A stretch of 64,000 bases of DNA. Source: Marsupella aquatica (Eukaryota > Plantae > Marchantiophyta). A program made the translations under genes and the position numbers. Shown here one piece after another: positions 10,270-43,600 of this stretch (within the stretch, counting starts at the first letter, position 1; every line of letters begins with the position of its first letter). The notes under the pieces were generated by a model. The model did not search any database and was not told where the DNA came from. It worked only from the letters and a program-made list of their open reading frames with translations. The stretch covers positions 16,174,699-16,238,698 of the forward strand of contig OZ316894.1 of assembly GCA_973895155.1 (NCBI GenBank). Reading direction: 5' to 3'.

Positions 10270-10298
10270 CGACCGACGACGACGACGACGACGACGAC
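10270..10298. repeat. (CGA)n microsatellite
   Basis: cgacgacgacgacgacgacgacg run. Confidence 0.9.
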
Positions 10299-11719
10299 GC
10301 CTGTAACGCGCGTCAAAGCGAGCCACAGCTACTGTAGAAACCACAGGGAGCACAGAGAAAATTCAGCAGTACGACGCGATCAAGGAGAATAACTTGCGTG
10401 CCTGCCTGCCTGACTTGCGTTCGCGAGCGCAAGAACAGACCAGGGGGGACAAGCAATGGAAGAATAATCAGCTGATGCAGCAGTCAGTGGTAGATGAGGT
10501 CGTTCCCTGCCCGTGTGAGAGAGGCAAGCACAAGATACCAAAGTGGCGACTCTCAACAGACACACGACGCAACATTATTGCCTTCTCAGTCTCGTCGTGC
10601 GTAGTTGAGATGAGACTCGACCCCGCCTCCTTCTGGGGACTAGACCTATCTATCTATCTGTCTGGACATCCCCCTGCAAATTGCAGCAAGATGACACCGG
10701 ATCGACACTCAGGCTGCCGGCTTTCCTGTCCTCTTACTCAAAAAGAGAGGCCTAGACAGTCAGCCAGCTCGCGCCGACCTCGCGACCCCTCCAGAGCGGT
10801 GCAATGTGATCCCACCATCCCCCCATCTCCCCCTCCTCTCCCCGGACCCCCCACTCCTGTTGCGACAAGAGGTAAAAGCTACAGTAGCTGCAACATACCG
10901 CAACTCCATTTCAACCAGCCAAGTCCACCATAATTCTGTTCCGCCACGAGGAAAAGCTACAGTCCAACACAACGCAGCTCCATTTCAATCGACTCTACCG
11001 AAGTCCCACGACCGAACCCACCTCCACAATCATGTCCCGCCAAGAGGGAAAAGCTACAGAGGTAAGTACAACACACTCCGCAACTTCAATCAGCTTTACT
11101 CCATTAATTCCAACCAGAATCGACCAATGACCAAAGTGGCAAAGTGTGGCAGTCCACCAGACCGCATTCCACCAGCCCAGTCCCACCACCATCCGTCCAT
11201 CCATATCCTCCGCCAGTAAGCTCGCGCAACAGGTAGAGCAGTGCCGGAGCAGCAGCAGCAGTACTACCGGTCTACCGCTGTGGTCTACTCTACACTGCGA
11301 GCAATGCTGGCTGCTGCGAGTACTGTATATTATAAAATAATAATATGTGGGTCTCGAGTACCGTGCCGACTCTGACAGAGATCGACAGAAACAGTGGCGA
11401 AGTGGAGATTGATCGACTGGATTGCTTCGGTTGTGTGGTGCGCGGTGAAGCCCCTCGTCATCCGCCCCTCCGTCCCGTCGCCAGCGCAGGTAATCCGGCC
11501 CCGGCGAGTTGCCCGACAGCCCATGTTCTTCGTATACGGATGCAGGCAATACGACGCCATGTGAGGATGATCCGATTTCATGGGCCGCTGGCTCGCAGGT
11601 GATACGATTGTTTTGTTTTTCGGTGTGCTCTAATAATAAAGTGCCTCAGCCCTCAGATAGTCAGATTTGACCCGCCGCTTATTAATTACAGTAAGGACCG
11701 ATAAGCGGCTGCTTTCTTT

Positions 11720-13944: not shown

Positions 13945-16900
13945 ATTTTTAAAGGGGGAAAACCCACAAGAAACACCCCCAGGGATGAAAGCCACCCAGG
14001 GGAAGAGCACCAACAGGAGCAAACAAGAACACCCTAATCCAGCCATGGGTCAGGGGAAGCTAGGCTCCCTATGGAAGGGGTCCCCCTGATCCCGGCAAGT
14101 CATATGACTGCTATCCCTAAGCTGGCTATCACGGCTCTGGTACAGCAAGTAATTGCTCACCTGCAGGCTCCTAAAATTCCTATTATACTGGTTTTGCCAA
14201 TGTAGAGGGCAGGCCTTGTGTTGAAAATTTTTCCCAGTATCATTGTGGACCTCCTTGCAAGAAGGGGGGCAATGAGGTCGGGGAAGCATCAAGTTGCAAA
14301 CACCAATGTCATCCTTCTTCATCATTGTTCGTGTTAAGGGGGACCAAGATCTTGACCTTATCCCAGGGTTTGAGAGCAGTCTGCACCTTGTGAAACTCCT
14401 CACCCAACTGTCTGCTTTTCTTAGGTGATTGGCTGATGTCCAGCATATAATTAAGGTGGGTCTCCATTTGCCTGAGCACAACCCAGCCAGGGCAGTCTTC
14501 CAAGGAAATGAGAGTATGTAGCAGCGTTTAACTCTTTCCAAATACAATTGCACATCTCCATGAGCATAATCAAAGGGCTTGGCTTCCTCCTATGTCGCTG
14601 AATGGCATTGGTGATTGCTTCAAAAACAGAGCTGTTGGGGTTAGCAGGAGCCCCCTCGACCTCCACCTGTTGGTGACTCTACTACAACTGAAGAGAAGAT
14701 GCTCAGTGTGTTCAAAACAAGATTTGCACCTGGAGCAGATTCCATCGCAAACCTTCCAATGGCTGCCCCTACTGTTGGTGAAGAAGCACTGGTTGAGCAG
14801 CCGCCAAATGAAGAATCTCACCTTTGGTAAGGACCAACCTCCCCATAGTTTTTTCCATATTGAATGCCATCTCTCGGTGTTGCTCAATTGCACCCAACAC
14901 CTGTTCAGTTTTGTGACATCCCAGTCAACAAGCCTGTTGCACCTAGCCCACACCCGATTGGGGAACTTCCATCCCTTGTTCTTGTCTTCCCAGTTCCATT
15001 GCCACCCCTCACATTCCTTCAAATTGTGATCACCAAGGTCTGGGTTGCCTTGCATAATGTTATAGAAATGAGTGAATTCAGTGTTGTCCCTAGATTGGTT
15101 GCACTGGACTCTGTCTTTGAGGGAGTCTGATTCCAGCCAGCCATCCTGTGGTGTCCACAGGTCACCTATACTCCCGATGCCCTGATTAGTCATAAATCTC
15201 CTCAGGTTCACTCCTGCTTGTTTATCCATTTGGTGGTTCCTAGAGTACAGCCAAATGAGTCATGTGGGAAAGCTTACCCGTTCCAAAACCGTAATTAAAA
15301 TGTTGTCTCTTAGAGTATCACCCTTTGAGCAAGGCCCTCAGGGTAGGCGAGCCCTTGGTCATCAGCTCGTGGCTCGGCAGAATAGCTTCAGTCAAGGCCC
15401 AGCGTCTCCTCTCCTTTTTGCCAGGTTTGGACCTTAGTCCCTTTGTAATGATCTCCTGAGCAATCTGCACCCATTCACTCTTCCCACCAAGGATGAGCTT
15501 GGACACATGGTTCAACTTCAATGCTTGAGCTTGCTCAAAAATGGCAGGATCCCCAACCCTCCGACATATTTAGGAGCTGTGATGTCTCCAAGCAATCAGG
15601 GTTTTTATGTCCCTGAGTAGGCGTGCCAACCCCCCCCCCCCCCCTCCCCCCGGCCCCCCCCCCAAAAAAGGAACCATCGGCATATCTTTTCCAACTCCTT
15701 GTATCCAGACAGTTGCAGCTCAAGAAAAATCAGTCAATAAGTAGGAATGGCCCGCAAGACATGCCTCAGAATAATCACCCTGCTGGCCATAGTCAAGCAA
15801 AGCGGTGGGTCCAATGAAATGGCTTTTTCCCAAAATTTCCCAAGAAAAAAATTGGTTTCTTGCAAGGGGTAAATCTTATAGCCAATGGGGCAGCCAAGGT
15901 ACTCTGTGACCTCACCTTCTTGCGCAATCCGACGTCCATTGTGGGTACTTTGCTTCCTCAAAAAAAATAGGGATAATCTTTGACTTCTCCACATTAAGTT
16001 GAGCTCCAAAAAATAATATTTTCATACTTCTGGTTGTCTCCCTAGTGATTTGGAATTCATGTGGTGTCGCAGAGAGGAACATCCTAGTGTTATCAGCAAA
16101 AAGTTGATGGTGCAGACTATTGTCATTTGTAAGTTTTGCCCCAGACCAGCTCCCTTCCTCTAGTTTTGTTTATCAAACCCATCAAGGATTGTGTGGTGAG
16201 CACAACAAGACGGGGGAGTGTGGGCATCCCTGTCTAACTCCTCTAAGTAAGGGGATAGAGTCTGTGAACCGTCTGTTTATGTGGACCTTAGCATGCGGAT
16301 TTTCAACCAGGCCCCAAATTAGAGTGATTGCACAAATCGAGCACAGCCCAAAGAAAAGTGTGCTTGACCCAATCGTAAGCTTTGGTGAATCCAGTTTGAG
16401 GAAGGTGCGAGGTTGCTTGCTGACAGTGGCTATCTCCTGGCATAATTTAAAAGTTAGAATGTTGTCAAGAATGTCCCTTCCAGCCAGGAACCCGGTTTGC
16501 TGTTGGTCAACAACCACCCACTTCACCCGGTTGGCAATGAGATTAGCAATTAGTTTTCCAGAGAGTGTAAGCATTGTCAAGGGTCTCCAACTACTAAGCT
16601 CTCTAGGCCTCTTGATTCTTGGGGATCAATTTGACCACACCGGCCAAGGCCCTGATGGACAACCTCCACATCAGACAATCCAGAATTCTTGAATCATTTC
16701 AATGCATACTTTTGTCATAAAATTCCAGCCCTTGTGCAACACCTCAATAGTAACCTTGTCAATCCCTGGTCAGGAGCCTTATCAGTAGGGAGATCGAAGA
16801 CCATTTCCTCAATTTCCTTCTCATTAGGCACAGATGTGATAGCCTGGTTCTCCTCTTGAGACATCTTACTAGTAATAAGTAAAGGACATCCGCTTGCAGA

Positions 16901-18130
16901 GCCTGATGTGTTTGTGTCTCGGGGTCATCTGTGTAGAGTTCTGAGTAGAAATTGGTAATTTCATGGAGAATCCGGTCCTTGTCATCACAAATTTCCCCTT
17001 TGCGCAGCTTGATTCTCCAAATACTTTCCCAGGCTTGCTTAGCTTTGAGTTGGTTAAAAAACAATTTAGTGGGAGCTTTGCCCAGTTGTAACCATCTGAC
17101 CCTACTCTTCCTTTGGAGTTTCCTAGTTTCTTCTTACTTTCCGACAAGTTAGATCTTCCATTGCCTTCAAAGCATCATGATCTACCTAATTATGGAGCTT
17201 GTCAGCATGAATTTGCATCTCCTGCAGTTCATTCCCTGGATGGTTGTTCTTGGCAAGTTTGATTCTCCTTCTCTTCTTGGTTTGAAGGAGTCCTTTGACA
17301 CCTGCCCAAGTGAGGTCCCAATTCACCCTTGGGTCATGATTCTGATCCATGTGATTCCCCCATATGTCTTCCATAGCCTGCTACATCTCAGTCGAGTCAG
17401 TGATATTGGGGTCCATTTTGAAGTACATGGTTTTTCCTGTGTGTCCCAATGCTGCAAGCCTGTTTGGGCCTGTTCCAGAACCAGGGTAATGGTGATTGGG
17501 ATGTGGTCAGATAGATCCCTACTGCCGTGAGTATAGGATTTAGTATTCTCACACCACTCATTCCTATTCCTACTATAGTTGCGGTCAAGCCAAGATTGGT
17601 CAAAGCGATCGAAATGATGGGCTTGCCTGGTGAAGACCAGCCCCAGCCTCAAGCCAGTGCACAAATAATTATCAACCATGTCAAAGTGTTCCCCAAGCTT
17701 ATTCCAGACACAGATTTCAACACCATGCTTAAGGGCGTGTGGTCCAACAAAGTCGTCGAATAATTCAGTCATATTTGAGTTGCCACACATCAGCCAGTTT
17801 GCATTTGGGAGGTTTGTTATTAGCCACTTCCCAGGCTAATCTGCTATCTCCTCTCATTCGGTGCATAATCCGACCCAATGTTCACCTCTCCAATCACTGT
17901 TTGAACTTGGCCCAAACAAACATGTCTTCCCCTTTCCGGCCATGGTCCAGGACCTTAAAGTGCGCAGGTATCAACATAGGCGCTCCAACTTTCCCTGCCT
18001 GGTTGCTATCCATCAGAATGGTGCCCTCCTTATCCCGGAACTTAATTGAAATTGCGTTCTTTCATCTTTGACCTTCAATTCCTGGAAGCATAAAATAGAA
18101 TTCTCAAGCTTGTTCCTTCTTCTCCAGCTA
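13945..18130 (-). mobile_element. Decayed non-LTR retrotransposon (LINE): APE endonuclease, reverse transcriptase and zf-RVT remnants
   Basis: Fragments ILCFQELK, DLSDHIPI, QQQTGFLAGRDILDNIL..FLKLD, GVRQGCPHSP, YLGCPIG, PKVRFFIWRLL...CSRC...EHTEHLLFSC; many frameshifts and stops. Confidence 0.9.
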
Positions 18131-21382: not shown

Positions 21383-23537
21383 TTTCTTCCACCACCTTGG
21401 ATTCGGTGCGATTCAGAGACCACGACGGCAAAATCTTGACAAAAACCTCGAGAGAATAACAAAGCCCTCCCAGAAAAATTCCGTGCGTCCGAATGGTAGG
21501 AAAATTGGTCACAGGGTGATTGGGAGGGAGCGAGTGTCTCTCCGTAACCCTACACGCCGTAACAAAAGCATGGTGGGAACGAACTGTAGACCGTCTCGTC
21601 TCTCACTACAGTCGACTATTCGCGAAGGAAAGAAACAGCCAACCCTAAAGTTCATGGGAAAATCATTACTCGCCTTGAAATATCCGTAACATTTGTTTAG
21701 TAAATAATTAGTGCCAGTGCTCCTGTTTTTAAAGGTTTGCTATTTAAGGATCAAGGGGATGGTGCACCCAATGTAATCTAAAGACCCTGGCGTCCAAAGA
21801 CCAAAAGGGAAGAGAAAACAAACCCCCAAGGACCCAAAGTAAACACCAACCTAAAGTTGCAGCGCAAAAAGTTGAACAAAGGGACCTGTAGTAAGAAGCC
21901 TTGGGCTAGGAATGGGTCAACCCAGAGAGAGCCATGTCATGGGTCCAGTAGCTAATCATCTACATATTAGCATTAAAGGTGTCTTTACGGTGGACCTGGT
22001 TTGCAACTACTATCTAGCCAAGAAAGCTAAAACATATCAGCTCAGGAAATTTATTGGATAGCCTAGAGATGAGCACCAAGCCAGCCCAAATGTAACACAA
22101 TAAAACATGTTTGCTATGGATGTTGAAATCTCATATTGCAGCCTGTTGAAGTCAAGCGCACCCTGGGCAATGCGCCTAGCCTGAGGTGTCGCAGCACGCC
22201 TGGATTGGAGCACCTCATGTGGACTGGTCTCGGGTAGCCCAGGTTGCTCATGGACCAGCCCACGCCTGAGTAATGGGCACAAGGGCGCCTGGGCACTAAG
22301 TTGGGCATAATTAACTAGAAGTCGGGAACTTGAGTCAATTCCTAACAACTTTAGTTCCGCTATGTGTGAAGGACCCACAATTGAAAGTTGAGAATTCTTG
22401 GATCTAAAGCATGGGACCCATTAGAGATCTTGTAGCCCTATTGGGCCTGTTACAAAGCTAGAGACAAGTTGTAAGAAAAAGGAGTCCCTTCAATTGGGAA
22501 GGTGCACAATAGTCTACTTGAGTGATTCATGGATGTGTAGTGCTAGATGCTCATGGGCACTAACAAGGGATCTCTCTTGTGTGGCTAGTACAAGGGGCAT
22601 TGAAATGATGTGCCTTTATGCCTCACTACTATGTGTCTTAAACACGATTTCGAACCGAACGAGAATTATTTCCTCTAAACGAGAAGTGTATTTTCATTTT
22701 CCGCCGAATCTCGCAAAATTGGCAGTTTTTTTCATCAAAAACACGTTTTTGGGGAAATAATGTAATTCGTATCGGAGTTTGGATTGAAACAGCAAATTTA
22801 ATAATGATCAAAACCAATGAAATTCATGCTAACAAACATTCATATTATCAAGGAACAATTAGATCCGAAAAACTTTCTCCTCAACCTCATATTCACGCTC
22901 TCCGAAGATATATGAAAGGTCTTATCTATAAATCCATATCCACGTTTCGAGCCAAGTGCGATAATTGTATCGGACTCCGGATTTGAGCCATGAAAGCTCC
23001 GACCCAATCTCAGTTTTCTCAGTTTTTGGATATTTACCAAAAATATTTTACATCACAGTCGATAAGAATTACTGCACGGTTCGTCAAACTTACCTTGCAG
23101 TTACCTCCGCAATTGACCAGTTACCTCCGCAAGTGACCATAGTCAACATGCCATTCTTTCAACAGCAATGCGCAGTCTGATAAAATTATCGCGAAAACTA
23201 CGGGCGACAAAAATACTAGTCGACAATACTAAGATCCTTTGGTTCATCGGTTAAATTTCAAAATTCCTATCCATATGAAGGAACCACTTTTGCAATACCA
23301 ACATCAGATAAATTTATCGCTTCAATTTCAAATTGCAACTTCCATATGAAGGAACCACTTTTGCAATACCAACATCAGATAAATTTATCGCTTCAATTTC
23401 AAAACTATATAATTTTGCCACGATGCACGTGTGAGAATGAAATTGGAAATCCAAGAAATATACCCTTTTCTGCTATTTTGTCGTTTAGGGTGACAGCCAA
23501 TCAAAAGTGGACATGTGGGCCAACCCCTCAACAGACA

Positions 23538-23547
23538 CTATAAAAGG
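23538..23547 (+). promoter_or_regulatory. Candidate TATA box of the transposase gene
   Basis: ctataaaagg about 120-150 bp upstream of the first in-frame ATGs. Confidence 0.4.
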
Positions 23548-23689
23548 GCCACCGCCGATAAGTTTTTGGCGTCATTATCGAGAGTAGATTTTTGCGAGTT
23601 GTGTTCTTGGAGCAACATTCTGTCCGTTGAGCCTTTCGTTTTCCCTGATTGCGGGAGGAATGCATAGCCCCATAGTGTCTCGGATAGCC

Positions 23690-26600
23690 ATGTCTCAATC
23701 AGACATAGATTCACCTTCCAGTTCAGTTGAATCCTCTCCTTCCAGTTCAGTTGAATCCTCTCCTAATCTTGTCGCTCGCTGTTTGCCAAGTCGCATACTT
23801 AAAGCTCTACCTCTCTCACAGCAAATAGTGCCCGAAATCTCTGACTCAGATTCTGATGCAAGTTCTGGTCCTGAGCCCAGTGCTTACTATGTGTCGCCTA
23901 GTAAACCTGAGAAGCGTCGTCTCTTGAGCATTCCATCGCTAAGAAATGAGAAACTTTCAATCCCAGGTTTAGGTCCGAGACGTCGCTTCAGGCCATCCAT
24001 CCTGGGTTATGGAGAGGGTATCCGGCGACCGATACGCGTATCGCAGTCGGCATTCAAGTCGCCACATTCAACACAAGTTCAACGACGGATCTTTCAGTCT
24101 CCGGCTGAGGATCGAGATACAAAAATACAAAGACCGATACGGCGATCGGTCTTTGCATTGCCTGGATTGGATGTGCGAGCAAGCGAGGGAATCGAACTGC
24201 AAAGTCCAGACTCGGCCCTTTCTTGAATGGTTCGTGGGAATCGTGGTGAACAAGTGCTCAATTTTCCAGCAGCTCGCGGAGTCGTTGGGACTGCACGTGC
24301 GAATCCAGAATCTCCAAGTTCTCAAGGGCGGACTGTCATTGGTTCCAGGCTCCAAGTATTGAGGAGAGGTCTTAGTGGTGTTCGGGTTATGTATAGAGAG
24401 CCACGGAGTCCAATTGTGTTTTCAGATGAGCCAAGTGCATCGGAGGACGAAGATGAGGAAGGAGATAGAGAATCCGATATAATAGCACAAGTTGTGTCTG
24501 AATGTTTAGAAGGAGCTGTCGAAGAGAATAGTTATAGTCGTCTATCCAGTGCCCCTCTAAATGCGTCAAGGAGATCTATAGAGGATGGTAGCTCAACAGA
24601 GAGTGATGCATCTATTCACGAGGCACCTGAAGGACCCAAAAATGCCAATGTTATGAACGGATTTCAGGCTGTAGAGAAGTCAAATGAGCCTAGTAAAAAA
24701 GATAGGGACCAAATTACTAGGAAAGACAATATGATAAATGACAAATTGAATAGAAACAAAATGAGAGAAATTCATAAGTATTCGTGTTGTGATAATTACT
24801 GTCTGAGGAATTTGGGTCTGCTAGCCATGACGAAACAATGCACTTATTACTATCGGCTATCCTACCCAGAGAAGAACGTCCTTCTAAGAGGATGTGTGAA
24901 GGGTGGGCATGCTGGTGCAAGTGGTTACTCAGTTAGCGGTAGATCCTTTTGTCGAAGTGGTTTTAAGAAATTATTTTCACTAGGAAATAATCATCTCCAA
25001 AAAATCTCGCAGAACATGTTTTCTCGGATACAAATCGGTACAGTTTGTCGAGAAAAATCACCCGCACATCTTGGTCTCGTCCAATGGCTGGATGATTTTT
25101 TTTCCACAAATGTCGAGAGTCTCCCCAACAAGGATATCTTTCATTTACTTGACAATTGGACAAAAACATAAGTTTTTGATGCCTTCCAGTCCGAAACTCT
25201 AATGCGCCAAGAACAAGGCATGACATATTCGTGGTTTTTTCGCATTTGGAACAAGGAGTTTCCTCGCGTGCGCATCCCCAAAAGGAGCCGTTTCTCCACC
25301 TGCGCCCCGTGTACTGAATTCAAAGCACTCCGTGACAAGGCAACACTCGAAGCAAAAAAGAGTAAGTTTCTAAACCTGTGTGTTACTCCCGATAATTTTA
25401 TCGGGTTGAGTATTCATGTGCTTCTTCTTTGGCCATGTGAGTGAATATATCGTTTGAACAGTTTGAATACTGAACCTGATAAATTTATCGTTGTCACAGT
25501 TTTTCATTACGGTCTTGTGTTTGAATACTAAACCCGATAAATTTATCGTTGTCAAGGTTTATCATTACGGTCTCGTGTTTGAATACTGAACCCGATAAAT
25601 TTATCGTTGTCAGGGTTCAACATTGCGGTTATCATGTTTTGTCCTAAACATTTTTATTATTGTATGAAAATTCTCAACATTGCTAAACGAGCATCAGAAG
25701 GCACAAGCAGTCGAGAGGGAGAAGTTAGCAAAGCACCGGAGCAAATGTTACAAGAGTCCGGAGAAATATTTGGGCATCTGTATTGATGGAATGGATCAAA
25801 AGAAGACAGAGTTACCTCATTTCATTCGGTGTCCGAAGAATATGGATGAAAAGTATTTCATCCTCGTACACGTAGTGGGTTGTTTGATCTTCAACAAACA
25901 ATTAAGTTCAAATGTTTTTTTGAACTATCCAAATATTCACAATGATAGCAACCTAACCATCCACGTTATCCAGCATATTCTGAATACCTGGGAAGGTCTG
26001 CTCCCTCCAGTGCTTTACCTCCAGCTTGATAACACAGCTCGAGAAAACAAGAATAAATATCTTATAGGATATTTGAATATGTTGGTGGAGATAGGTATTT
26101 TCCAGAAAATAAAGGTTGGTTTCCTATTGGTGGGGCACACCCATGATCAAATTGATCAAATGTTTAGCAAGTTTTCCCCAAAATTGAAAAAGCGGAAAGC
26201 TTTCCGGTTGGACACTCTTTCAGCAATCATAGAGGAATCCTACAATCATAGAGGAATCCTACAATCCTACGGCAAAGATATTTTTTGTCGACGAGGTTGC
26301 CAATTTCAAGAAATTTGTGTCAGACAAGGATCAAGCAAATGACAAGGATATGGATGGTCAGGTTCTACGTACTCTCCACGGCATAAGTGCTCAAAAACAA
26401 TTTCGGATTACTAGAGTACTCGAAGATGGAAGTGCTCGGTCCGTATTCCATGCCAAACATCTTTCAACGACAACCGATTGGGGGGAGACGGTGGATTTTG
26501 TTCGGTACATTCCATCATCTGGAATGTGGGTCGCACCACAAATGGCATTGAAGTCGGCCAGGGGAGCGACAGGAGACAATGAAGAGCAAGAGAATGATGT

Positions 26601-27246
26601 TGAGGAACAAGATGAGCGGGCGGCTCAAAGTTATTTGTCAACTCTTCAAAAATATCGAAGAGCAATTGAAGATGGATTCAATTACTTTGACGACGAAGAT
26701 TGTCTATGGTGGGGTCGTTTTTTTGACAAACAAAAAGAAGTGATTCAGCACCACCTGAAACTTGCACAATGGAGTTTTGATTGGAGTTGGCCCAAGGTAA
26801 ACGTAGAGAGAGAACTTCCGAGTAATCCTACGGAAGCAGCAATGGAACCTAGCTTGGTTGATAAAGTAGCGGGTGTGAGGACAGTCATGTATTCCGGAAG
26901 TCGAAGGAAAGTCACGGAAATTGGAGACTTCAAGGATCTAGAGGTGAATACTAAATTTGCAATGATATGTGTAGCAGCCCATCAGGATCCCAAGGGAAGG
27001 CCATTCTGGATGGCAAAAGTGACTGAGATTCTCACAAGAATTAACGACATCCCGGAGCGGATTAAAATCACTTGGTATGCAATGGATTCGGAGGTAGAGT
27101 CTGCAATTGAAGGCAGATATTATCCGGAGAAAGAGGCTTCGTCTAGCAAAGTACTGGAGGATGAATTGTCCCTAGCAGAAACTGCCGTTTATGCGTATAA
27201 CTTTGCGTTATTGGCAAATAGTACTCTCCCTATACAAACAAGATGA
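23690..27246 (+). pseudogene. Disrupted DDD/DDE-type transposase (DUF7869/Sola-like) with Ser-rich N-terminus and C-terminal SH3-barrel-like region
   Basis: CCDNYC, FCRSGFKKLFSLG, FSTCAPC, ICIDGMDQ, LYLQLDNTARENKN, FLLVGHTHDQIDQMFS. One frame broken by TGA (24224) and TAA (25169); intron from GT at 25362 with an apparently mutated acceptor near 25665; a 19-bp tandem duplication at ~26225-26262 causes a frameshift (removing it restores EESYNPTAKIFFVDEVANFKKFVSDKD). Confidence 0.82.
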
Positions 27247-27625
27247 ATCATTCAAAATGCAATGGAGACTGTAGTCGTTGATAGTCGAAGCTAGTTGCAG
27301 GTTTAAGTTATAATGGTTATCGTTCCCATGAATATGTACAGTGGTTATCGTTCTGGGACTATGTACTCCGCAGCTATAATGATATCTCTTTTTTTGAAAT
27401 AATTGCAATGACAAACCAGTTAGAGCATACAATGCTAAGTCCGATAAGATTATCGACAACTCCATTCCCCCAACTAGAACACCGCGATAGTCCGATATAT
27501 GCAAAGTCCGGTAAATTTATCGCATTAGTAAAGGTGACAAAGGTTCTTCCTCATGGAATACAGAATCCGATAAATTTATCGACAACTCCATTGGTGATTG
27601 ACATTATCCTAACGAGCACACGCAA

Positions 27626-30600
27626 CTAATCTAATAACATGTCATTGAGATCATCCTCATTTGGTGTTCTGGGAGGCTCTTCCTTAGTTTCTTCTTGTTC
27701 CTCTTCGGTCTCCTTCACGACCTCAACTACGTAAGTCGATGTCCCGAGAACACCCAATTGGCCTGCAATTGGTGGTTGAATCTCATGACCTTCAACGTCG
27801 TGCCCTTCAATCTGGGATTCTTCATATAAATTCCACTTTGACTCCAGAATCATGATTCAGGATTTCACAAAATCAATCTGTGCAGAACTCTTATCAACAG
27901 CACAACCCTGGCGAGATTTGAGGAGAGTAGCAGCTAATATCGATCTGGTTCCACAACAAAGATCAATAACCCAATCCTCTTTCTCAGAGAAATGGGAAAC
28001 AAACCAAACCCCCAAACCAACAGGCTTCTGATACGGGTTCACAACAAATCCCAACGGATCAACGGACTTCTTGGTTACACATGGAACCTTGATGATATTG
28101 ACGCGAGACTCATCCGGTTGGAAATTGTACATGTCTATGTTCCGAATGCCTTCCTCGCTATAGAAACCTATCGACCAGTTCTCAAAACCCCACACCAATC
28201 GAGCTCCAGCTGGACGCTCATGAATGTTAGTCTTCTCCCAGATTCCAGATTCCAGCCTCGACCCCACAGTTGCATACACTCTCCAGTGCAGACATCACCA
28301 TATACGTTTGTTGTAGTGAATGCATCACAACAAACCTCCACTGCTTAGCGGTCGTCATCTTTGAGAAACTTGTCAACATGTCTAAAATGTCCTTTTCTGT
28401 GAAGGCCACTTCATCAAACTCCGAACCAGGAGCATTAAAACCATACGGAATATCCGCAACCGCAAGGATGTAAGTCCTTGGCTGAACAAAATAATCCAAA
28501 ATTTGAACATCACCAACATGAAGATAGTAGGGAAAAGAATCCCCGTCTGCATTTTTCCATGTTTGTTCAAACGCTTCTGCTGTGCCCTCGCCTAAGGACC
28601 TCAGCCGATTGTACTTATCGATTGCAGCAAGCACAAAATTCTTAAACACATAAGAGATTTCAGCTGAGGGAACAATCACCTCCCCCGCAGAATTATAAGT
28701 GACAGCCGGAATCACTTTGCTTTTCCTTTTTGAATTAATCTTCAGCTGTAAAAATCTCAGACACATCTACAGTTAGAATAGCGTGAGATGAATGCTAAAG
28801 CCGATAAAAATCTCGCGATGGAGCACGCTAGCTGATAGATGCAATCGCTTAGAAACCAACAAAGGAATAAAGCTGATAAAAATCTCGCGATGGAGCACGC
28901 TAGCTGATAGATGCAATCGCTTAGAAACCAACAAAGGAATGCTAAAGCCGATAAAAATCTCGCGATAGAGCATGCTGTGACAGGAATGCTTACCGCATCA
29001 CTCAATTTCTCCGCCCATATGCCAAGGACCGAGACATTTGTTTCATTGGGAAACATTTCTCTGCATGTTGCCCAATCTGGCTGACCACATATCTGCAAAA
29101 ATAGTTTCTTCACCTTGGCAAGCTTTTTCAACTTCTCACCTTCCTTGTGCATTTGATCCAAAGTGATCACCTTCCCGATAACCCTATTCAAGAGACGCTT
29201 GACATGCTCCTTATTTGACAGTCCTTGGAGACCTCAAAATGAATTTAAGTTGAGGTCACCAGCAAGTTTATTCATTTTAATCTCCCTTACCGTCAAAGGT
29301 TTTACCTTTCCCTTTGCGTTCGTCGTTGCCACAATTTTTTTGGGTTGTCCTAAGACAATACCTTTCTCCCACATCTGGAAAATCTGCTCCTGAATATCCC
29401 AAATTTCACCTGTTCGGAAAGCAATTTGGAAAGCCGGATCATGTTTGGCCATGGAGTCACGAACTCCTGGCGTGTACTCCATCATGCATTCTTGACAACA
29501 TGCTTCGCGGACATCTTTAGTCAAGCCCACACCCATTTCAAGGAAAATATTGTGACAAGCGCAAACTTGGTCAATTTTAGTCATGTTCTTTCGATACTCC
29601 TGGTCATAGTTATACTGGAAGCCTAACTTTCGGACCTCGGATCTCGTAAGCCCAGCGTAAACCCAAGCTTCCAGCTCACCATATATTTGCTTCCCGTACA
29701 TTTTAAACAACTCGGACTTTGCCCGAGCACCATGATTCCCTCCAATAATTCTATACTTCCATACCCTTGACTGCAGGATGTCCCAATCTGCGGTTGTGGG
29801 ACAATCCTTCGGATCCACACACAGCACGAATGGGGCACTGAAGTTGGTGGGGTTTTTCATGAGAAGTATCTTGATATTTTCCACATGCAATCTATCCACT
29901 GGTCTAATCAAAGTTGACAAATCCCCCTCCTCATCAAATATGAGATTGTCGACATGCAGAAGCACAGTTGTCCTTTGCACCCTTTGTTGCATCAAAAGAC
30001 TGAGCTCTGCCTTGATCGCGTCCATCTCATACATCGAAAGAGCCGTCTCCTCCTCCTGATCAGCCTACAAAAGCGTTGCAAATTCAATTAAGGAAAGAAA
30101 CTACGAGATTTTTATCGGAGTTCGTATTTGTTCAACATAACTCCACAATCCGCAATTCAGGAAATAAACAGCGAGATTTTTATCGGATTTCGTATTTGTT
30201 AAACAGTACAACGACGTAGTACTTACCAATGGCGCCGTAGGAACCGCGATTGGAATTGATGGAATTGACGGAGCTCTATCTACTTCTGCAACCACCGTCT
30301 CAGTCCAGCCAGTCCTCTTCCTCTTTGTGCTAAGTCCAGAACCAGATGGCCCGGATCCCTCGGATCCTTTACTTTCGCTTGGTTTAACGGATGGTCCTCG
30401 ACGGTTGCCCCGGCCTCTCCCACTACCGCCAGTTTCCTGGCTCCTCATCCCACGGTCAGAGGTTCCCGTGGCATCTCCCCTGCCGCTACCTCTCCCTTTC
30501 CCTCTTCCACTTCCCAAAACCCGACCAGAAGTTGTAGGTTCGTCCACGTCAATACGTGTAGAGGATTGCAATGGTTCTTTTCGCCCCAACATTTTATCGG

Positions 30601-31195
30601 CATTAGAACCACCGCTGCCACTTGAACCTGGTTTCTTGAAAACAATTTTGCGGACAAGTTTGAACTCTTCACCCACAAGTCTCTTGTACTCTGCATTCAC
30701 CCTTGGAAGCATGATGGCATCACAATCTTGCACATACTGGCCGATCCAAGCCAAACCCATAACATTCATCTCTCTTGCTGCCCGAACTTCGGCAACAAGG
30801 GGATCTTATGGATAACTGTCCATCGATTTCTCATCAAAGTTATCGAGAGTAACAATGAGAGATGTGAAACCCTTGCGCCCACACATTGTCAAGAAACTAA
30901 GGCCCTCTATCAACACTTTTTCCTCCCCGTGGCCAACCATGAACTCGACGATGGCAACAACAATGACAGGGCCATACGAAACATTAACCTTCGCCGATTT
31001 TTGCAACTGGACCCAAAGGATTGGGGTAGCACAATCTTCGAAACCCGTGGACTGTAATCTGGCGTCACGGAAGTACCATGACTTCTTGATACACTTGACC
31101 TCTTCACAAATGTCTTCACTCATCCAAATTGCATTGGTGAGGCTTGTCATGAGACTTTCTGCCTCAGCAGATCCACTCTTTCCACTAGCAGCCAT
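27626..31195 (-). pseudogene. Transposon cargo gene: N-terminal domain, Gly/Ser/Arg-rich linker, ParB/Srx-like domain, beta-class N6A/N4C DNA methyltransferase domain, acidic tail
   Basis: Spliced frame (introns ~30225-30066 and ~28992-28749). ParB-like IRPVDRLHVENIK...YRIIGGNHGARA. MTase motifs in beta order: LAVADIPYG (catalytic motif IV-like), GIWEKTN, NPYQKPVGL, WVIDLCCGTRS (SAM-binding FxGxG-like). Lesions: in-frame stops at 30806, 29234 and 27857, and a 7-bp ctggaat duplication near 28240-28255. Confidence 0.8.
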
Positions 31196-31393
31196 GGCAA
31201 AGTCTGCAAATAAACAAATTCCAATGCAAAGAGCGATAAAATTATCGCCGCCAATCTCACAGCACATGTGGACACGACATCTCATCACACAAGGACAAAG
31301 AGACCCGCAATGCAAATGACCGATAAAATTATCGCAAAAGTGAGCCTTCTTTAAATTGACGGCCGAGTGTACAGGTCGAAGAATCAGCTACGG

Positions 31394-31436
31394 AACCCTA
31401 AATCCAAAACCTTAACCCCTAAACCTAAACCCTAAT
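31394..31436. repeat. Short degenerate telomere-like (AAACCCT)n / telo-box cluster
   Basis: aaccctaaatccaaaaccttaacccctaaacctaaaccctaa. Confidence 0.7.
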
Positions 31437-32145
31437 CATAGTTGAACCTCGCCAGAGCGAAGCATTCGATCCGCTTCTTGGGCCATTGGGGAATATGAGT
31501 GACGCGATGATCATAAGCCCACAGCCAATGGAAATCAACTTCACCAGTCTCAGGATTCACTACTACTACTGAATGTCGGCGTGACGAAATGTCACAACAA
31601 GCATTTGTGCAGCATGGACAGATCTCACCATTGGCAAGGACGTTCGTCCACAGGCAACTTACATAGATCAAGTTAAAGAGCGCACAGACCGGCTGGGGGG
31701 GGAGTTGACGAATCTTGTATGAATATAGTTTCCCACCAGTGTCAATAAAAAACTCGGTGGCAAGAGGATTGTCCAGCTTGTCAATCACATCCTGAATCTC
31801 ATTGAATGCTCTACGTCTGTTGTCGGCATAGAATTCTGGCTCATAAGCAGGATTGCCCTTCACAACATGACAGTAGTGGAGTATAAAACGTCTTATTGCA
31901 CCGGTTTTCAGAAAGAGTAGGATAACTCTTCTAGAAAATCCAACATATCTATCCCACCGAATATAAATTTCTCCCCCTACCTGATCTACGTAGAAGTGAA
32001 ATGCGTTATGGTAAAACGGTTTTACTACCAGCCTGCATATCTTTAAAATTAGTGACTCATCCAGCCTCCTTAGCTGGTCCAGCATGGCTCCATTCCCCCA
32101 TTCTGGAGGATCCAAGTAGGGTACAAAAATGCGTCGCTCGAGCAT
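31432..32145 (-). CDS. Transposon-borne hypothetical protein, 237 aa, with a C-terminal Cys/His cluster
   Basis: Uninterrupted ORF with globular, protein-like composition and EICPCCTNACCDISSRRH; ttcag acceptor just upstream of the ATG. Confidence 0.6.
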   Translation of the reverse strand: MLERRIFVPYLDPPEWGNGAMLDQLRRLDESLILKICRLVVKPFYHNAFHFYVDQVGGEIYIRWDRYVGFSRRVILLFLKTGAIRRFILHYCHVVKGNPAYEPEFYADNRRRAFNEIQDVIDKLDNPLATEFFIDTGGKLYSYKIRQLPPQPVCALFNLIYVSCLWTNVLANGEICPCCTNACCDISSRRHSVVVVNPETGEVDFHWLWAYDHRVTHIPQWPKKRIECFALARFNYD

Positions 32146-32513
32146 GGCCTGATCACTGAATAGAAATCAGGAATAAATTTTGGAGAACATACTAATTACA
32201 ATTCTACAAGTTTCATCCAACTTTACAGTACCTTGTATAACGGGCTGTGAAGCCAATGCACTTGTCAGCTAATCGTCCGAAGAGGCGCAAACAAATACAC
32301 TCTGGACCACACAACCCGAAGTCAAGGGAGGCAGAGTCAATTACATTCAAAGTGTTTCTTTACAAGCTCTTCTCGAGCAAACCTTAGAGCACCCAAAATT
32401 GACTAGAGGAATGAGGAGTGCGATAAATTTATCGGATGTTCGCAGCAATGCCTCATCCACTCAGACTCGTCCATGCCATGCAAGAATTGTCCGCTTCCCG
32501 CTTTCTCCAAGAT

Positions 32514-32991
32514 TTATCCAAACTCTACAAACTGATCTAACTGCTCATACAAAAAGCACCCAAGCATATCTATGGGAGGGAGGAAATGAGTTTCCTCTCG
32601 GAAGACCCTAGCAATATGTATGTTTGAGAGAAGGTCGGCATTAGGAATGCTTGCGAGCATTTTGTTTATGTCATTGATCTCACGGACTGCATATTTCAAT
32701 AGCGCCCAAAATCGTGTACCAACAACAAGATGGTTCCATTTCTTTGAGGTGGCTCCAAGACAAATGATTGTTCTCATTCGAGTCAGTCGTTCTTCTGGTA
32801 GAAGTTTTAGGTCAAGGCCAAGGTGTTCATCTTGTGTGCAAGACAAGGCTAAAAGGGGCCAAATGTGAGATTCAACGAGTTGATCGGGAAGTCCATTCAA
32901 CACCGGGCACTTTTCCTCGAATATATTTCCTACGCTCGTGGGCTAAAACGGATCCCATCTTTGCAACGATTAGATTCTCCGACGCAGCCAT
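32514..32991 (-). pseudogene. Transposon-borne F-box-like protein, probably frameshifted near the N-terminus
   Basis: PVLNGLPDQLVESHIWPLL...IICLGATSKKWNHLV...FWALL resembles the plant F-box signature LPxxL...I...L..VSKxW..LV. The ATG at 32991 is in a different frame. Confidence 0.55.
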
Positions 32992-34499
32992 GAAGTAGAG
33001 CTACCAAAACCACCAATAAAAATACCTTCAATCACCAGGTGTAACCGAACACATCCATAGTACCAACCCTGCATGACAGTTTAACGATTAGGACTCGTGA
33101 CGTATTATATTCGCTGCACAAGGGTAGGACTTGTTTATTTAAATATGTCCTTACAAGACGCGCCTCAATGCAAAGGTCGAAACACTCATCGTGAAAGGTT
33201 CACCCAAGGGTCTTCGTTCCAAATCTTACAACAGAAGTGAGCCTGTTTGTGGTACTTGTTGTCAAGACGACGACAATAATAGTTACAAGAAAACTCCAAA
33301 GAATGTAAACATGCCGTTAACATCAACCTCGAACAAATTGGAACTCTTGCATCATTCATTCAGCAGAATTCAATGCGGAGAGGATTTTGCCTATCTCCAG
33401 GATCAGTACCACCCATCCACAATGCTCCTATACTGATGGGGAGAACTTTGAGCCGCACGAGTCTCTTGTACAACCGGCGTGCACGTTTGACATGATTTTC
33501 AAGGAAGACAGCCATTTGTCACAATACCTGTTGTCCACGGAGTGCAATCGACCTTCCATTGTGCCTCCTAAACCCGGCAACACTGCGACATCAGAGATGA
33601 AGATGAGTCTCCAAACAAAACAAAGGAAAATGATTCTCACAGGAGGATGCGATAAGTTTATCGCACTCCGCATTCGAATTGAAAATATGACTTCCTCAGA
33701 CACCTAAGCCCTGAATTCAATCTTTCACAAAAATGACAACTCCGATAAATTTATCGGATTCTCAATTACTCCTCTTTCCATGAAAGGAATGAAGACTCCA
33801 ATAAATTTATCGGAATGAAGGCAACACCTCTCTAAACACTGGATCAAATGATTGCAACAGAGGAATGTAGAATGCAATAAATTTATCGCAGTCCGCTCGG
33901 ATCTGGACATTTTACACTAAATGACTAGTTAGTCTTACATGGAGAACTTGAACAGGAATGGTTGTTCCGATAAATTTATCGGGTTTTCGGTAGAAAGAGT
34001 CAAATCGCTTGGGAGGAATGTAAGACTCGATGGGAGTTTGGTATTCGCTCTCAGTCAGGAGATATTTGCTCTGGCGAAAGCAAACGTTTTATGGGCAGCC
34101 CGCTCCTCTTTATATAGGAGACGCTCTAAACCATGGTTAATTTCCCCTTAACCATGGTTAAGTTTCCCCTTTACCTGGGTTAGTGCGTGGTCGTTCCTGG
34201 ATTACGCGGTTCGGACCAAGTTACTCGCAGTTCGGACTTTTTCACTGATGGAATGTAAAACCCGATGCACGTATCGCTCCCTGCATTCCCGCGGCGATGC
34301 AATGGAGGAAAGTGGCGTTTCGGAGAGTTTTTGCCAGTTTTATCGGTCATTGCATTGCCTTAGAAAAAAAACGGGATCGGGCTAAACGAGAACTCCGACA
34401 CACTTCTCGGTCGGTCCGAAATCGTGTTCTTAGTATATTGCTAGTAGTCATGCACAACAACACAACAATCTTTTTTGCCTTGAAACATCCAATTGAAAT

Positions 34500-35560
34500 C
34501 CATTCAAGAAGACAACATACAACAGGGTGGCCCACGAAAGGGGGACAACACCCAAAGAGGACCAGAGGTCAATGTGCTAGAAGCTTCCGGGGGGGGGGCG
34601 CCAAGATAGAGACTGGGCCTCACCAAGGATACAACTAAATATTCAACTATTGTAGGGGGGGCAACACACTCCTACAGACTGGTCACTCAAATAACCCTGG
34701 CAGGGGGCCACTGAGTGGGTTAGAGACCAAAAATGAGACTCGTCAATCTAGCTACAAGTCAAACCACTACCTTGCTCAATCAATACTTCTTAGAGCTCTT
34801 GGGGGCACCGAGGGACCTGAAGAATCTCCCAAGGCCAATTCAGAACCATAATCAAACAATATATCAACAAACATACTGTAGGCTGTGGCTTTCCCTACAT
34901 GCAACTTCTGTCTGAGATGGGACCAGTCCCTGCGCATATAAACGGTGAGAATGTACCAGGATTTCTTGATGACTACATGAGGATCCGATTGTGTATGTTC
35001 AATGAAATGCATGCTCATATCCTTCCATACATTTTCCAGGAGACTATGGCTCTAAGAGTGTCCCAAAGAGTTTAGGACACATCCCACACCCTCAAACAGT
35101 TCTTCAACCAACAAAATATGGGCAGGACAGAGTGGGGTTAAACAAAGGGCCAAGAAATCTTCAAACTATATTGAAGTCAGTTCCAGACAAGTCAGGAAAT
35201 GGGACAACTCCAAATGCAACGAACAATATCCTCTTGTAACTCCAGGTCAACCGTGTGCACGAAGTGGTTGAGTCCAATGCAAGGAGGGCTGGGGAGCACC
35301 AGTGTTGGGTGGCAGGGACAATTAAGGTAGACCAGTTACCAAAGGAAGTAGTTCTCAAAGGCAGCATGACAAGGAAGCCAAGTCTGGCACCAAAGAGCCT
35401 AGGCACCCTGCATCTCACGAAGGTGTGCAATATTGGTGTAGAAAAGGGCCTTCCATCCTGCCAACAATATTGAGTAGCAATCTCCAAATCACCACAAGGT
35501 CATCAAATGCGTTGTCTGGCCATCACCTTAGGGGGTGAATGAATCAGCACCAGGTCGATC
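34500..35560 (-). mobile_element. Decayed LINE 3' fragment
   Basis: WKDMSMHFIEHTQSDPHVVIKKSWYILTVY-type C-terminal LINE ORF2 remnant; purine-rich tail like the one at ~13950. Confidence 0.5.
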
Positions 35561-40469: not shown

Positions 40470-40677
40470 GCACAATGTGTTCGGTGCGGCAGAGGAGGAT
40501 TGATTTCACGATGAGCTTGAGGGGATGGGATTGTATGATGCAGCGATGCAAAGTCGCCTCATGTTCAAGAACAACAATGGGCCTGTGATTGAGCGTGTGA
40601 TGAAAGAGCTGGTGCAAATGCACAAGAGATCTGCTGCAGGTGCCAATAACTCAAGTGGTCCTGGGGTGGCGGGATAA
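40470..40677 (+). pseudogene. NBR1-like C-terminal UBA-domain remnant forming a 50-aa uORF (40525-40677) that ends 2 nt before the CFAP57 ATG
   Basis: HNVFGAAEED*FHDELEGMGLYDAAMQSRLMFKNNNGPVIERVMKELVQM resembles the plant NBR1 UBA2 pattern (AEWDPxLEELxEMGFxD...LLxKNNGSIKRVVMDL), recalled from memory. Confidence 0.55.
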
Positions 40678-40679
40678 AG

Positions 40680-43600
40680 ATGGCGACAATTGCGCAATCC
40701 CTGCTTCCAAATCACGTCTTCGGGATCCAGTCCGTGCTCCGTGATGGCTTGCATTTTGTGGATGACACCACTGTGGTTTACACTGCGGGGCACACCGTGG
40801 TGTGGTGGACTATGGACCAAAAGAATCAGAAAGTTGGCGTGGGATCTATGGATACCGAGGCCATTACAGCAATTACTGTGAGCCACAACAGAAAATTTGT
40901 GGCCGTGGCGGAGAGTCAAATGCCGGAGCGTCCCGTGATTCTGGAGCCGAAGAAAGAAGTAAGCGAGCTCTCAAAAGCCGTCGATGCAGCCAAAGCAGCC
41001 CCAGTGCTGGAGATCAAGGGGCCCGTGATCACACTGTTCGATTCGCAGACAGCCAAGAAGAAGAAAGTCCTAATGGGCGGGGAAGTCGGATCACGGTCAT
41101 ATGTTTCCCTCGCCTTCACCGCCGACAATAGGAGCCTGGCAGCTCAAGGAGGGCCTCCGGAGTGGAATTTGATGCTCTGGAGTCTGGATAAATCGAAGTT
41201 GATTTCATCGATCAAAGTCTCCACAGAGCGCGAGGTTTTCCAGGTATGAATAGTGGATTCTTTACATACTCCTAAGCTGGTCCTAATGCGGTCGTCCAAG
41301 CAAGCTTGCAAAGATTTTGCTCTCCTCTAGTTTGCCACTATTGCTGCGGTCGGTGGTTGTTAGCGTCTCAGTCTCAACGGCGACGAATGCGTGAGACATT
41401 TTCTTCCTTTGTCATTCTTGCCTTAATCATAAGCTAGTTGGTATCTAAGAAATCAGAATTTGTCATCGGCATTGCTTTTTTGGGAACACAGAAGTAAATA
41501 GTTATCCTAATGTTGAAAGTTGTCAATATCAATGGTGGCCGCTGAATTCCTCTCTTATGGACACTTAGGTATGGGCCTCTCTGGCAACGACCTCCTTGCA
41601 ACGAAGTCTCTAGCAATTTGAATGAAATCCTTAAGGCTTTAGATGCAATTTCCAGACATATTAGCAAAGAGAGTCCGTCTGGCCTGTCACCGGTGACCGG
41701 ACAAGCAGTAGCAGAATCCCAACCTCTCCCAGAGATGTTTCATTATTAAAAGCCTCGTCTGTTGTGGAGCGTCCTGAAAACTGCTGTGTATTCTCATTCA
41801 AGAAAGGTTCCGTTTTCTTTCGTTTGTAGCCAAGTAGGGAAATCTTGGTACGTTAAAAACGTGGCAGCAGTTTTTTTCTGAACACGTGGTAAGAGAGTCG
41901 ATAAACATTGGTATGAGTCTTCTTGTTTCCACTAGTTTGGAGACATGCTGAATAAGTGCTTAAGCTGGTGGCGAAGGCTGCACCTTCTAGGTCAGAGTAT
42001 CGAATGCGTACACACAGGCTCGTGTGTCCACCTCGCACCGTCCTCCAACACCCCCGTCCTAACAACAATCCCATCGGGCATCAGAATTTTTTAGAGAAAA
42101 GACGAATGCAAAGAAGAGCGCGATCGAGAGTCGTGTGAGATGAGTTAAAATTAAAATGTAGAGATGTCCACGCAGCTGGACATCTTGCATTGAATAGGCA
42201 AAACTGAAATTGCATATCCGATCTTCTAATGTCACGAGAATGGATGGTCTCATTCGTCCGTTTTGGATGGTTGTAATTCAGCAAGTTGTTTTTTTCACGT
42301 CACTTTGCGTGATGAATCATCCCGTGCTTGTCTCTTGCAAGACCAAAACATAGCTCGTGGATGCAGGTCCAGTGCTGCCTCGGTGATGTCACCGTTATCA
42401 CATGTATTGGAGATGGATTTTTTAAGACTTTCAGAGCGACTGATTCATTGCTGAGGCAAATCTCCACAGACATTGGAAAACGTGAAGGGCAGAAAGTGCT
42501 CCACCATTTATGGTTAGCTGGTGAAGGAGGCGAGAAGGGTTCCACTGATAAGGAGAAAGAGAAGGACCGAGTAGACAAAGAGAGGGAAAGTGCCTGTCTA
42601 TATGCAATGGAAGACGGAGAACTTTTGTACACCGAAGGTGGGGTGGTATGTTCTCTTTGTTGATGCAATGGTTCCTGGTAGTGCTTGTTTTGTTGAAGCT
42701 TTTCGTTGTGCTGATTGTGGAATATCGTAAGGAAAGCCGACGTGTGGTCTTATGTTGCCTCCACCTCTCGAGGAAAACGGCATGCAGGTACCGCCAAAGA
42801 GTCATCCCGAACAGTAGAATGAGTGACCTGTCTACTATTACAGACACTCAAACTCTGAGTACATTTCTGTTAACATCCATGCTAATTGCATAGTAGTTTT
42901 ACTTGCTCGCTTGCACTGGCAACAATTGAAGGGATGTTTGAGGTCACGCTGACTATGATCTGATGAATAGAATGAATCTGCAGATTGTTGGAACAGTGTG
43001 TCCTTTCGGTGGTCTACCTGGAGCAGGGGTTGTTGAACTCATGGTACAGTTCTCGAAAGGATTTATAGCAGCAGAAAGGGGAGGCAGCTTAGCTATTTAT
43101 GAGAAGATTGATGAAGAGAACTTTAAAAGAATACGGTCTTTCAAAGTAGACATGAGTGGTGCAAGGATGGTCAGTTTCAGCTTGTCTCCGAGCGAGGACC
43201 TGATTATTGGCGTTCTGGAAAGCAGGCAGATTCTTGTAATACCGTTCCAAAATTCAGAATTCTACAAACCAGATGAAGTTCCCAAAGAAATAACTGTGCA
43301 TGTGAGTACATCGTATTTCATATGAATGCTTTCTGACCTTAATTACCAACCGCCAGCTGATATGTTTACCTCTGAAATCGTTGTTTGCAATGTATCAAAA
43401 GCTGATTGCTTTTAAATGTTGAAGTGTACTAACTTCAAACCGTAGCGAAGATCTGTCCAGTAAAGCGCATCTCCACGGCTTTTCTAACGCAAGAATTTTG
43501 GAAATGCAGGGCTACCACTCTGGAAATATCACAGGTTTAGATGTCTGTGTTAGGAAACCGTTGGCTGTAACATCCAGCTCGGATAAAAGTGTGCGTGTAT

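Follow-up and report, generated by a model that had tools for sequence, protein, structure and literature searches.

A multi-copy Sola1-type transposon of the liverwort Marsupella aquatica with a ParB-methyltransferase gene and a family-specific palindromic candidate site

The subject of this work is an 11.8-kb DNA transposon at positions 22641-34428 of a 64,000-nucleotide stretch of the Marsupella aquatica genome (contig OZ316894.1); this whole stretch is called the window. The element belongs to a Sola1-type family of cut-and-paste transposons present in many copies, and this copy has decayed. On the strand opposite to its transposase it carries a gene in which a ParB-like domain and a helix-turn-helix (HTH) of the ParB type are fused to a DNA methyltransferase, and its non-coding DNA holds an array of palindromes. 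We propose, at a probability of about one half, that a dimer of the ParB-HTH protein binds these palindromes and that the fused enzyme methylates its own element, the product being likely N6-methyladenine (6mA) and the purpose likely protection against silencing by 5-methylcytosine (5mC). Binding by the ParB fusion is the firmer of the predicted steps and the purpose the weaker.

The element and its transposase

The boundaries of the element and its transposase gene are as follows.

22637..22640, plus strand: left target-site duplication (TSD), CTTA, read from the sequence
22641..22665, plus strand: left terminal inverted repeat (TIR), beginning 5'-AACAC
23660..27294, plus strand: Sola1-type DDD transposase pseudogene (exon 1 23660-25361, exon 2 25666-27294)
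34404..34428, minus strand: right TIR
34429..34432, plus strand: right TSD, CTTA, read from the sequence

A preliminary reading of this DNA (here called the sequence-only reading) had described a 4-bp CTTA TSD, which indeed abuts both ends, and intact 25-bp TIRs. The TIRs are present but imperfect, since 23 of 25 bases agree (27 of 32 after extension). A 4-bp TSD is a criterion of Sola1 (PMC10741241) and is seen here in the window copy, and the mobile ends carry terminal inverted repeats as Sola1 ends do. The AAC termini and a TSD ending in A also agree with the Ectocarpus element Sola1-1_Ec32, in the available part of its description. Lanisha was considered as an affiliation and dropped, being EnSpm-like.

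The predicted plus-strand transposase matches Pfam DUF7869 (E 9.5e-47) and contains the motifs IDGMD, QLDN..ENKN and GHTHDQID. In an alignment of 14 sequences the catalytic residues D40, D121 and D163 are nearly or fully invariant, and the distance from the first to the third equals the 124-position length of the Sola1 profile. Read by eye, YLQLDNTARENKN around the second D fits the consensus of the published Sola1 profile, in the part of the supplement available (PMC5751038); the 25 positions of the Sola2 profile that were compared show no fit. There are 96 longer transposase relatives, those named being from Riccia, Adiantum, Ceratopteris and sea urchin, and none was found in viral contigs with the patterns used.

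The window copy is dead, every long gene except an orphan gene (see below) being broken by stops, by 7-bp and 19-bp duplications or by a lost splice acceptor. In the transposase these lesions are stops at 24224, 25169 and 27244, a 19-bp duplication near 26224-26266, and loss of the acceptor at 25665.

The ParB-methyltransferase gene

The gene has about 1050 codons in three in-phase exons, on the strand opposite to the transposase.

30227..31195, minus strand: exon 1, a conserved N-terminal domain of about 190 residues and a low-complexity linker; stop at 30806-30808
28994..30064, minus strand: exon 2, ParB/Srx-like domain (GGNH), helical region and ParB-type HTH; stop at 29234-29236
27626..28745, minus strand: exon 3, beta-class N6/N4 DNA methyltransferase with motif IV ADIPY and motif I DLCCG; broken by a stop (27857) and a 7-bp duplication (28238)

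A ParB-methyltransferase cargo had been proposed from the sequence, and the ParB-like domain, ParB-type HTH and N6/N4 methyltransferase do lie in one minus-strand gene. Pfam N6_N4_Mtase is matched by 12 of 24 aligned relatives (best E 7.6e-18), D[IV]PYG is conserved in all eight aligned rows, and DLCCG[TS]G in six of the eight. A structure was modelled for an intact relative, P0055, with a predicted local distance difference test score (pLDDT) of 77. Its C-terminal part matches CcrM, M.BceJIV, MboIIA and M1.HpyAVI with Z 20-23, the figures for CcrM being Z 23.4 and a root-mean-square deviation (rmsd) of 2.9 over 219 residues. Motif IV precedes motif I within the CcrM/RsrI/MboIIA fold, which is the arrangement of beta-class amino-methyltransferases. 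The middle part of the model matches PadC (Z 10.3, rmsd 2.6 over 98 residues), KorB (Z 8.6, rmsd 9.0 over 132 residues) and pNOB8 ParB (Z 7.8), with a ParB-N fold followed by an HTH, as in clamp proteins of the ParB/Srx fold. The corresponding exon of one related locus, L003, matches HTH_ParB at E 7.9e-4 and 20 bits, just below the cut-off of 22.6.

The N-terminal domain aligns with those of two related loci (L002 and L003) and was modelled at pLDDT 76; a Foldseek search with it gave no match below E 0.001. It weakly resembles the SANTA domain of M18BP1 (30620-31195, minus strand; Z 5.6, the best VIA match) and the RFTS domain of DNMT1/MET1 (Z 2.8-3.4), both likenesses being below trust.

Part of exon 3, searched against the full library, yielded 80 matches; 20 of these were looked up, and the named ones belong to Chara, Riccia, Diphasiastrum, Adiantum and Ginkgo. 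The Chara braunii gene model P0014 contains two tandem ParB-methylase units. No relative turned up among the longer proteins when the ParB exon was used in a word-based search, and the window fragments, searched singly against PDB sequences, gave no useful match. No relatives of the methylase were found in viral contigs and prokaryote genomes with the patterns used, and phage records hold distant methylases only (23-31% identity).

Copies and relatives of the element

Public contigs of several runs (X1-X7) were aligned to 22300-34800 in order to examine other copies. Those of X1 and of X3 cover all 30 bins of this interval. Two X1 contigs within the methylase gene have depths of 866 (6/368 differences) and 908 (7/289), compared with 29 at the unique left junction and 40 in the right-flank contig. 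This is roughly 20-30 times deeper than unique DNA, a ratio that is not a copy number, and it implies that the cargo has been amplified together with the element. The sequence-only reading had raised the possibilities that other copies lack the cargo, that the TIRs are matched nowhere else, and that the cargo genes are single-copy host genes. None of these proved to be so: cargo and transposase are both deep, the right terminus recurs with new flanks in four of four runs, and the gene pair is kept in divergent families (see below). At the right tip, contigs diverge at 34428-34430 into different flanks, at least seven in X1, at least seven in X2, at least one in X5 and at least one in X6; at the left tip, one X7 contig begins at 22640, preceded by 66 unrelated letters. 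No empty insertion site was found among the 15 of 69 joints that were listed. Among 40 of 1617 difference rows, several lesions of the window copy are private or almost private: at 25665, the transposase acceptor position, the whole depth of four runs has G; at 27857 all depth reads C, unlike the stop of the window copy; and the 7-bp duplication at 28238 is missing from most X1 depth.

Contig joints in X1 and X3 at 23565-33634 (found in X3), 27484-33966 and 24109-25349 suggest that there are non-autonomous derivatives which have lost internal parts and retain the site-rich ends.

A metagenome scan gave ten loci: six close ones (L001-L006, 51-61% identity), the distant plant-like L007, and the phage-like L008-L010. 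In four of the six (L001, L003, L004 and L006) a transposase stands tail-to-tail with the methylase, that of L003 being represented by its last 28-32 residues at the contig end; the other two end about 300-360 bases beyond the methylase stop. The six have mutual DNA identities of 67-81% and are therefore distinct families. Between L004 and L005 the methylase has a nonsynonymous divergence (dN) of 0.047 against a synonymous divergence (dS) of 0.77, while the other nine pairs have dN 0.11-0.25 and dS 3.15 or saturated. Judged from these alignments, the methylase is under strong purifying selection, and the ParB exon has diverged more (dN 0.13-0.48).

These data bear on the view that the cargo consists of host genes captured passively, as in Pack-type elements, and has no role for the element. 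The window copy is a pseudogene, and its two minor frames are seen only in the context of the window family, as such capture would allow. Against it, gene pair and orientation are kept in families only 51-61% identical, selection on the methylase is strong, and a brown alga has the same pairing. As a general account passive capture has hardly any probability; it is largely refuted for the methylase and may still hold for the minor frames.

Two further loci have palindromes of their own. The distant relative L007 has the motif DSNYG and a different palindrome, CGAGATAG-N3-CTATCTCG, in non-coding DNA upstream (L007:78-170, 1656). Another locus, L011, which the transposase alone brought to light, also carries a ParB-like gene (E 2e-10); a further 14-bp palindrome is repeated 31 times there, in an array at each end. 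The L011 element is about 10.9 kb long (L011:3121-14049), with a DUF7869 transposase and a divergent ParB-like gene, and adjoins a Helitron-like helicase. It is animal-like spliced DNA within a contig of a Nitrospirales metagenome-assembled genome, likely a contamination of the bin.

A palindromic candidate site

The palindrome CGATAAATTTATCG is, as the sequence-only reading had said, confined to the element: 19 of 19 window matches at up to two mismatches lie within it, and 24 of 25 at up to three. When CGA-N(k)-TCG was counted for k from 0 to 14, a peak at k = 8 was found in the element (21 copies) and in all six close loci (3-22 copies), and none in the flanks. The strict form, CGA[TG]-N6-[AC]TCG, occurs 19 times inside the element and not at all in 52,212 flanking bases, where a Markov simulation gives an expectation of 0.59 for the element (maximum 3 in 100 simulations). 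The sites start at the following positions.

Strict sites, first half (within 22959..34276): 22959, 24030, 24135, 25390, 25535, 25593, 27442, 27568, 28802, 28949
Strict sites, second half (within 22959..34276): 30104, 30172, 31234, 31321, 32421, 33650, 33743, 33968, 34263
Degenerate sites: 23178, 23306, 23377, 25477, 27509, 33799, 33875

Coding DNA makes up 65% of the element and holds only two of the 19 strict sites, the other 17 being non-coding (p 1.6e-6); the two lie in the low-complexity part of the long first transposase exon. The clusters are spaced at 1062-1255 bases, with one gap of 1849, which is about one cluster per 1.1 kb, and some sites have been amplified as tandem units of 58, 71 and 72 bp. 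In L002, a 61-bp tandem array of 3.5 site-bearing units (L002:194-409) lies upstream of the methylase gene.

Most strict sites have an AAT 11 bases outward on one or both arms. In the seven elements taken together, 87 of 140 arms and 65 of 70 sites show an AAT at a distance of precisely 11 bases ahead of the core, where the background is about 2%; no other offset reaches more than six. The full candidate site is thus AAT-N8-CGAK-N6-MTCG-N8-ATT, a frame common to the seven elements. Its four triplets are set at 11-base steps and would therefore share one face of the helix. The centre differs, being AAATTT-like in the window, CCAAAC in L003 and ACNNGT in L001, L002, L004, L005 and L006; by sequence comparison it is family-specific and follows the relatedness of the proteins.

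Since the repeats are palindromic and intronic, they might act as RNA or DNA hairpins (in splicing, as small-RNA decoys or as cruciforms) and not as protein-binding sites. Pairing between the arms is slightly above expectation in the pool of L001, L004, L005 and L006 (0.59 vs 0.50, p 0.017). There is no excess in the window copy (0.336 vs 0.341) or in L003 (0.388 vs 0.380), however, and that in L002 is not significant (p 0.16). In addition, the centre in L003 is fixed but asymmetric, some sites are intergenic, and the AAT is often present on one arm only, at its fixed 11-base step. We regard hairpins as very improbable.

The palindromes could alternatively be binding sites of the transposase, with the ParB-methylase acting on another target or on a short common one. 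Subterminal repeats bound by the transposase are common in other superfamilies, a degenerate core borders the right TIR on its inner side (34396), and the centre follows the relatedness of the transposase as well as that of the methylase. This last point speaks for neither of the two proteins in particular as the reader of the site. Against sites for the transposase, some lie within introns of the cargo gene, 4-6 kb away from both ends, and the typical target of the ParB family is a palindrome of 14-16 bp. A palindromic ParB target has also been argued for red-algal elements, in the available part of that preprint (bioRxiv 2025.02.11.637652). On balance, sites for the transposase are improbable, if less so than hairpins.

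Proposed function

In the proposed mechanism, dimers of the ParB-HTH protein would load on the CGAK-N6-MTCG cores within the element. It is probable that the two HTH domains of a dimer recognise this 14-bp core in the way that ParB recognises parS. The tethered methyltransferase would touch, and possibly methylate, the AAT that lies a helical turn farther out, and the D-x-P-Y motif leads us to expect N6-methyladenine as the product rather than N4-methylcytosine. With clusters at about every 1.1 kb, binding or spreading could reach all parts of the element, and the effect would be anti-silencing of the kind seen with VANC, keeping the element usable. Families would stay apart through the 6-bp centre, which changes along with the protein. 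We note that family-specific motifs in the non-coding DNA of an element, as in VANC-like systems, are present here. The ratio of observed to expected CpG is 0.81-0.86 in the seven elements, compared with 0.24-0.39 in flanking retroelement DNA. A wider version of the proposal, to be taken as tentative, is that of a broad radiation in non-flowering plants, in which a ParB clamp on parS-like intron palindromes writes 6mA, with retuned centres, protects against 5mC, and arose independently of VANC.

The ParB fusion might instead bind the same sites for the mechanics or self-restraint of transposition, as a clamp resembling KorB, which would link the ends or repress promoters, methylation (if any) then serving to time transposition. 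The structural likeness to KorB fits this, as do the clusters of sites that precede each gene and lie near both ends, the terminal arrays of L011, whose methylase is degenerate, and the deleted derivatives that retain both site-rich ends (joint 23565-33634). On the other hand, every intron holds sites, far from ends and promoters and in steps of about 1.1 kb, and by the dN values above, conservation is higher in the methylase domain than in the ParB exon. We consider this explanation possible, though unlikely; among the alternatives it is the one to be taken most seriously.

Several observations weigh against self-marking by the ParB-methyltransferase. The site centre tracks the transposase and the methylase alike, and the pooled arms are slightly over-complementary, as described above. 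The high CpG ratio is confounded by the youth of the elements and by their CG-rich sites, the host gene region having 0.72. Two stops in the window copy are TGA where relatives have Arg, which suggests that this copy has itself undergone CpG (5mC) decay. Motif IV is here DIPY, where the textbook form is (D/N/S)PP(Y/F); the phage-type methylases L008-L010 have DIPY, DLPY and DFPY. The ParB-domain motif reads GGNHGARA or GGHSREA, and presumably lacks the arginine that follows GxH in other ParB proteins, which makes the use of CTP and sliding uncertain. A single metagenome assembly is the source of all six close loci. The arrays of L011 persist although its methylase part seems degenerate (E 3.5e-4), which favours a role in binding only in that element.

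Minor frames and flanking DNA

The sequence-only reading had counted at least three convergent genes on the minus strand, and three frames are found there, 31195-27626 (the ParB-methyltransferase gene) and the following two.

31432..32145, minus strand: orphan gene, open, 237 residues, Cys/His-rich in its C-terminal half
32514..32942, minus strand: weakly F-box-like frame, start uncertain

The orphan has three unnamed homologues (45-65% identity); searches for a Pfam family, a PDB structure or an Atlas match gave none, and it shows no resemblance to the F-box-like frame. The latter had been called an F-box gene, too strong a name for a match of 14 bits (E 0.045) to Pfam F-box-like, where the cut-off is 24.3. 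It has no match among PDB sequences, and most X1 copies have one extra base at 32528. Even coverage ties both frames to the element, within the window family only.

The remaining features of the window are these.

8598-11645, minus strand: host gene, auxin-canalisation domain protein (E 6e-14)
14570-17835, minus strand: decayed long interspersed nuclear element (zf-RVT, E 3e-9) with low CpG
40650-54964, plus strand: host gene, long WD40 protein that resembles a cilia protein

At a run of T at 34465-34471, which lies 40 bases away from the insertion, differing upstream DNA is joined in 33 X1 contigs; this is likely the 3' end of a minus-strand retroposon.

Comparison with known systems

The comparisons that follow are limited to those parts of the cited accounts that were available. 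The sequence-only reading knew of no plant transposon family described with this architecture. Novelty of the architecture is not supported, as the same pairing, together with the hypothesis of self-binding and self-modification, is in print for Sola1-1_Ec32 (PMC12477816, Genome Biol 2025). That element likewise has a gene for a ParB-like N4/N6 methyltransferase on the opposite strand, of about 1100 residues compared with about 1050 codons here. The window element differs in its plant host, its length (11.8 vs 21.5 kb), its TIRs (25 vs 282 bp) and its two further cargo frames. Compared by description, the account of Sola1-1_Ec32 names no binding site, intronic array or family-specific change.

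The red-algal Plavaka elements with the accessory genes PAG2 and PAG3 (bioRxiv 10.1101/2025.02.11.637652) are giant DNA transposons in which a ParB-like protein and an N6 methylase are also found, together with inverted repeats in arrays that are the proposed ParB target, and this Bostrychia preprint ties the ParB-like cargo to the arrays. Unlike the window element, they have an EnSpm-type transposase, and their ParB-2OG oxygenase and methylase-SET fusions are separate genes; their repeats are tandem arrays adjoining PAG3, whereas the sites here are dispersed and intronic.

The closest functional parallel is Arabidopsis VANDAL/VANC (PMC5735166), with short, family-specific motifs that are multiplied in tandem in intronic, intergenic and terminal non-coding DNA, and an element-encoded protein. 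The function of VANC was shown experimentally, whereas ours is a prediction; in addition, VANDAL has a MuDR transposase, VANC is an unrelated protein and not a methylase, and its motifs are non-palindromic and 8-9 bp long. Fungal TET/JBP transposons (PMC12730594) also carry a DNA-modifying enzyme thought to counter silencing, in their case a dioxygenase without ParB, and that account names no Sola lineage. Marchantia MpDN4MT1 (bioRxiv 10.1101/2021.02.12.428880) and rotifer N4CMT are further prokaryote-type amino-methyltransferases that act on eukaryotic DNA, and N4CMT shares the fold class of the P0055 methylase (Z 19.8). These are host genes with an SPPY-type motif and N4-methylcytosine as product; the window gene has D-x-P-Y and is ParB-fused and transposon-borne. 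ParB-linked methylases of phages and algae are named in PMC4738411, the available part of which shows no clade that matches the window gene. In the literature searched we found no account of such cargo or of such a site in land plants, although Repbase Reports, Bao 2009, Iyer 2011 and bioRxiv supplements lay outside it and may describe the cargo of Sola1-1_PPa. What appears to be new, compared with the algal proposals, is a candidate site resolved to the base, with a centre that varies by family.

The value of the finding lies mainly in an exact and testable candidate target site, in a plant whose repeats are silenced by 5mC. The algal idea of self-binding and self-methylation has so far had no defined site or test, according to the part of PMC12477816 available. 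The site makes direct predictions: that a given adenine in it is modified in long reads, that an oligonucleotide of each family is bound by the protein of that family, and that swaps switch the specificity. If the proposal is true, it would represent a transposon-made DNA mark in land plants and a second sequence-specific route of anti-silencing. The proteins would form a family of compact DNA methylases with long sites, and the elements would likely give rise to localised 6mA signals in the genomes of bryophytes, lycophytes, ferns and Ginkgo.

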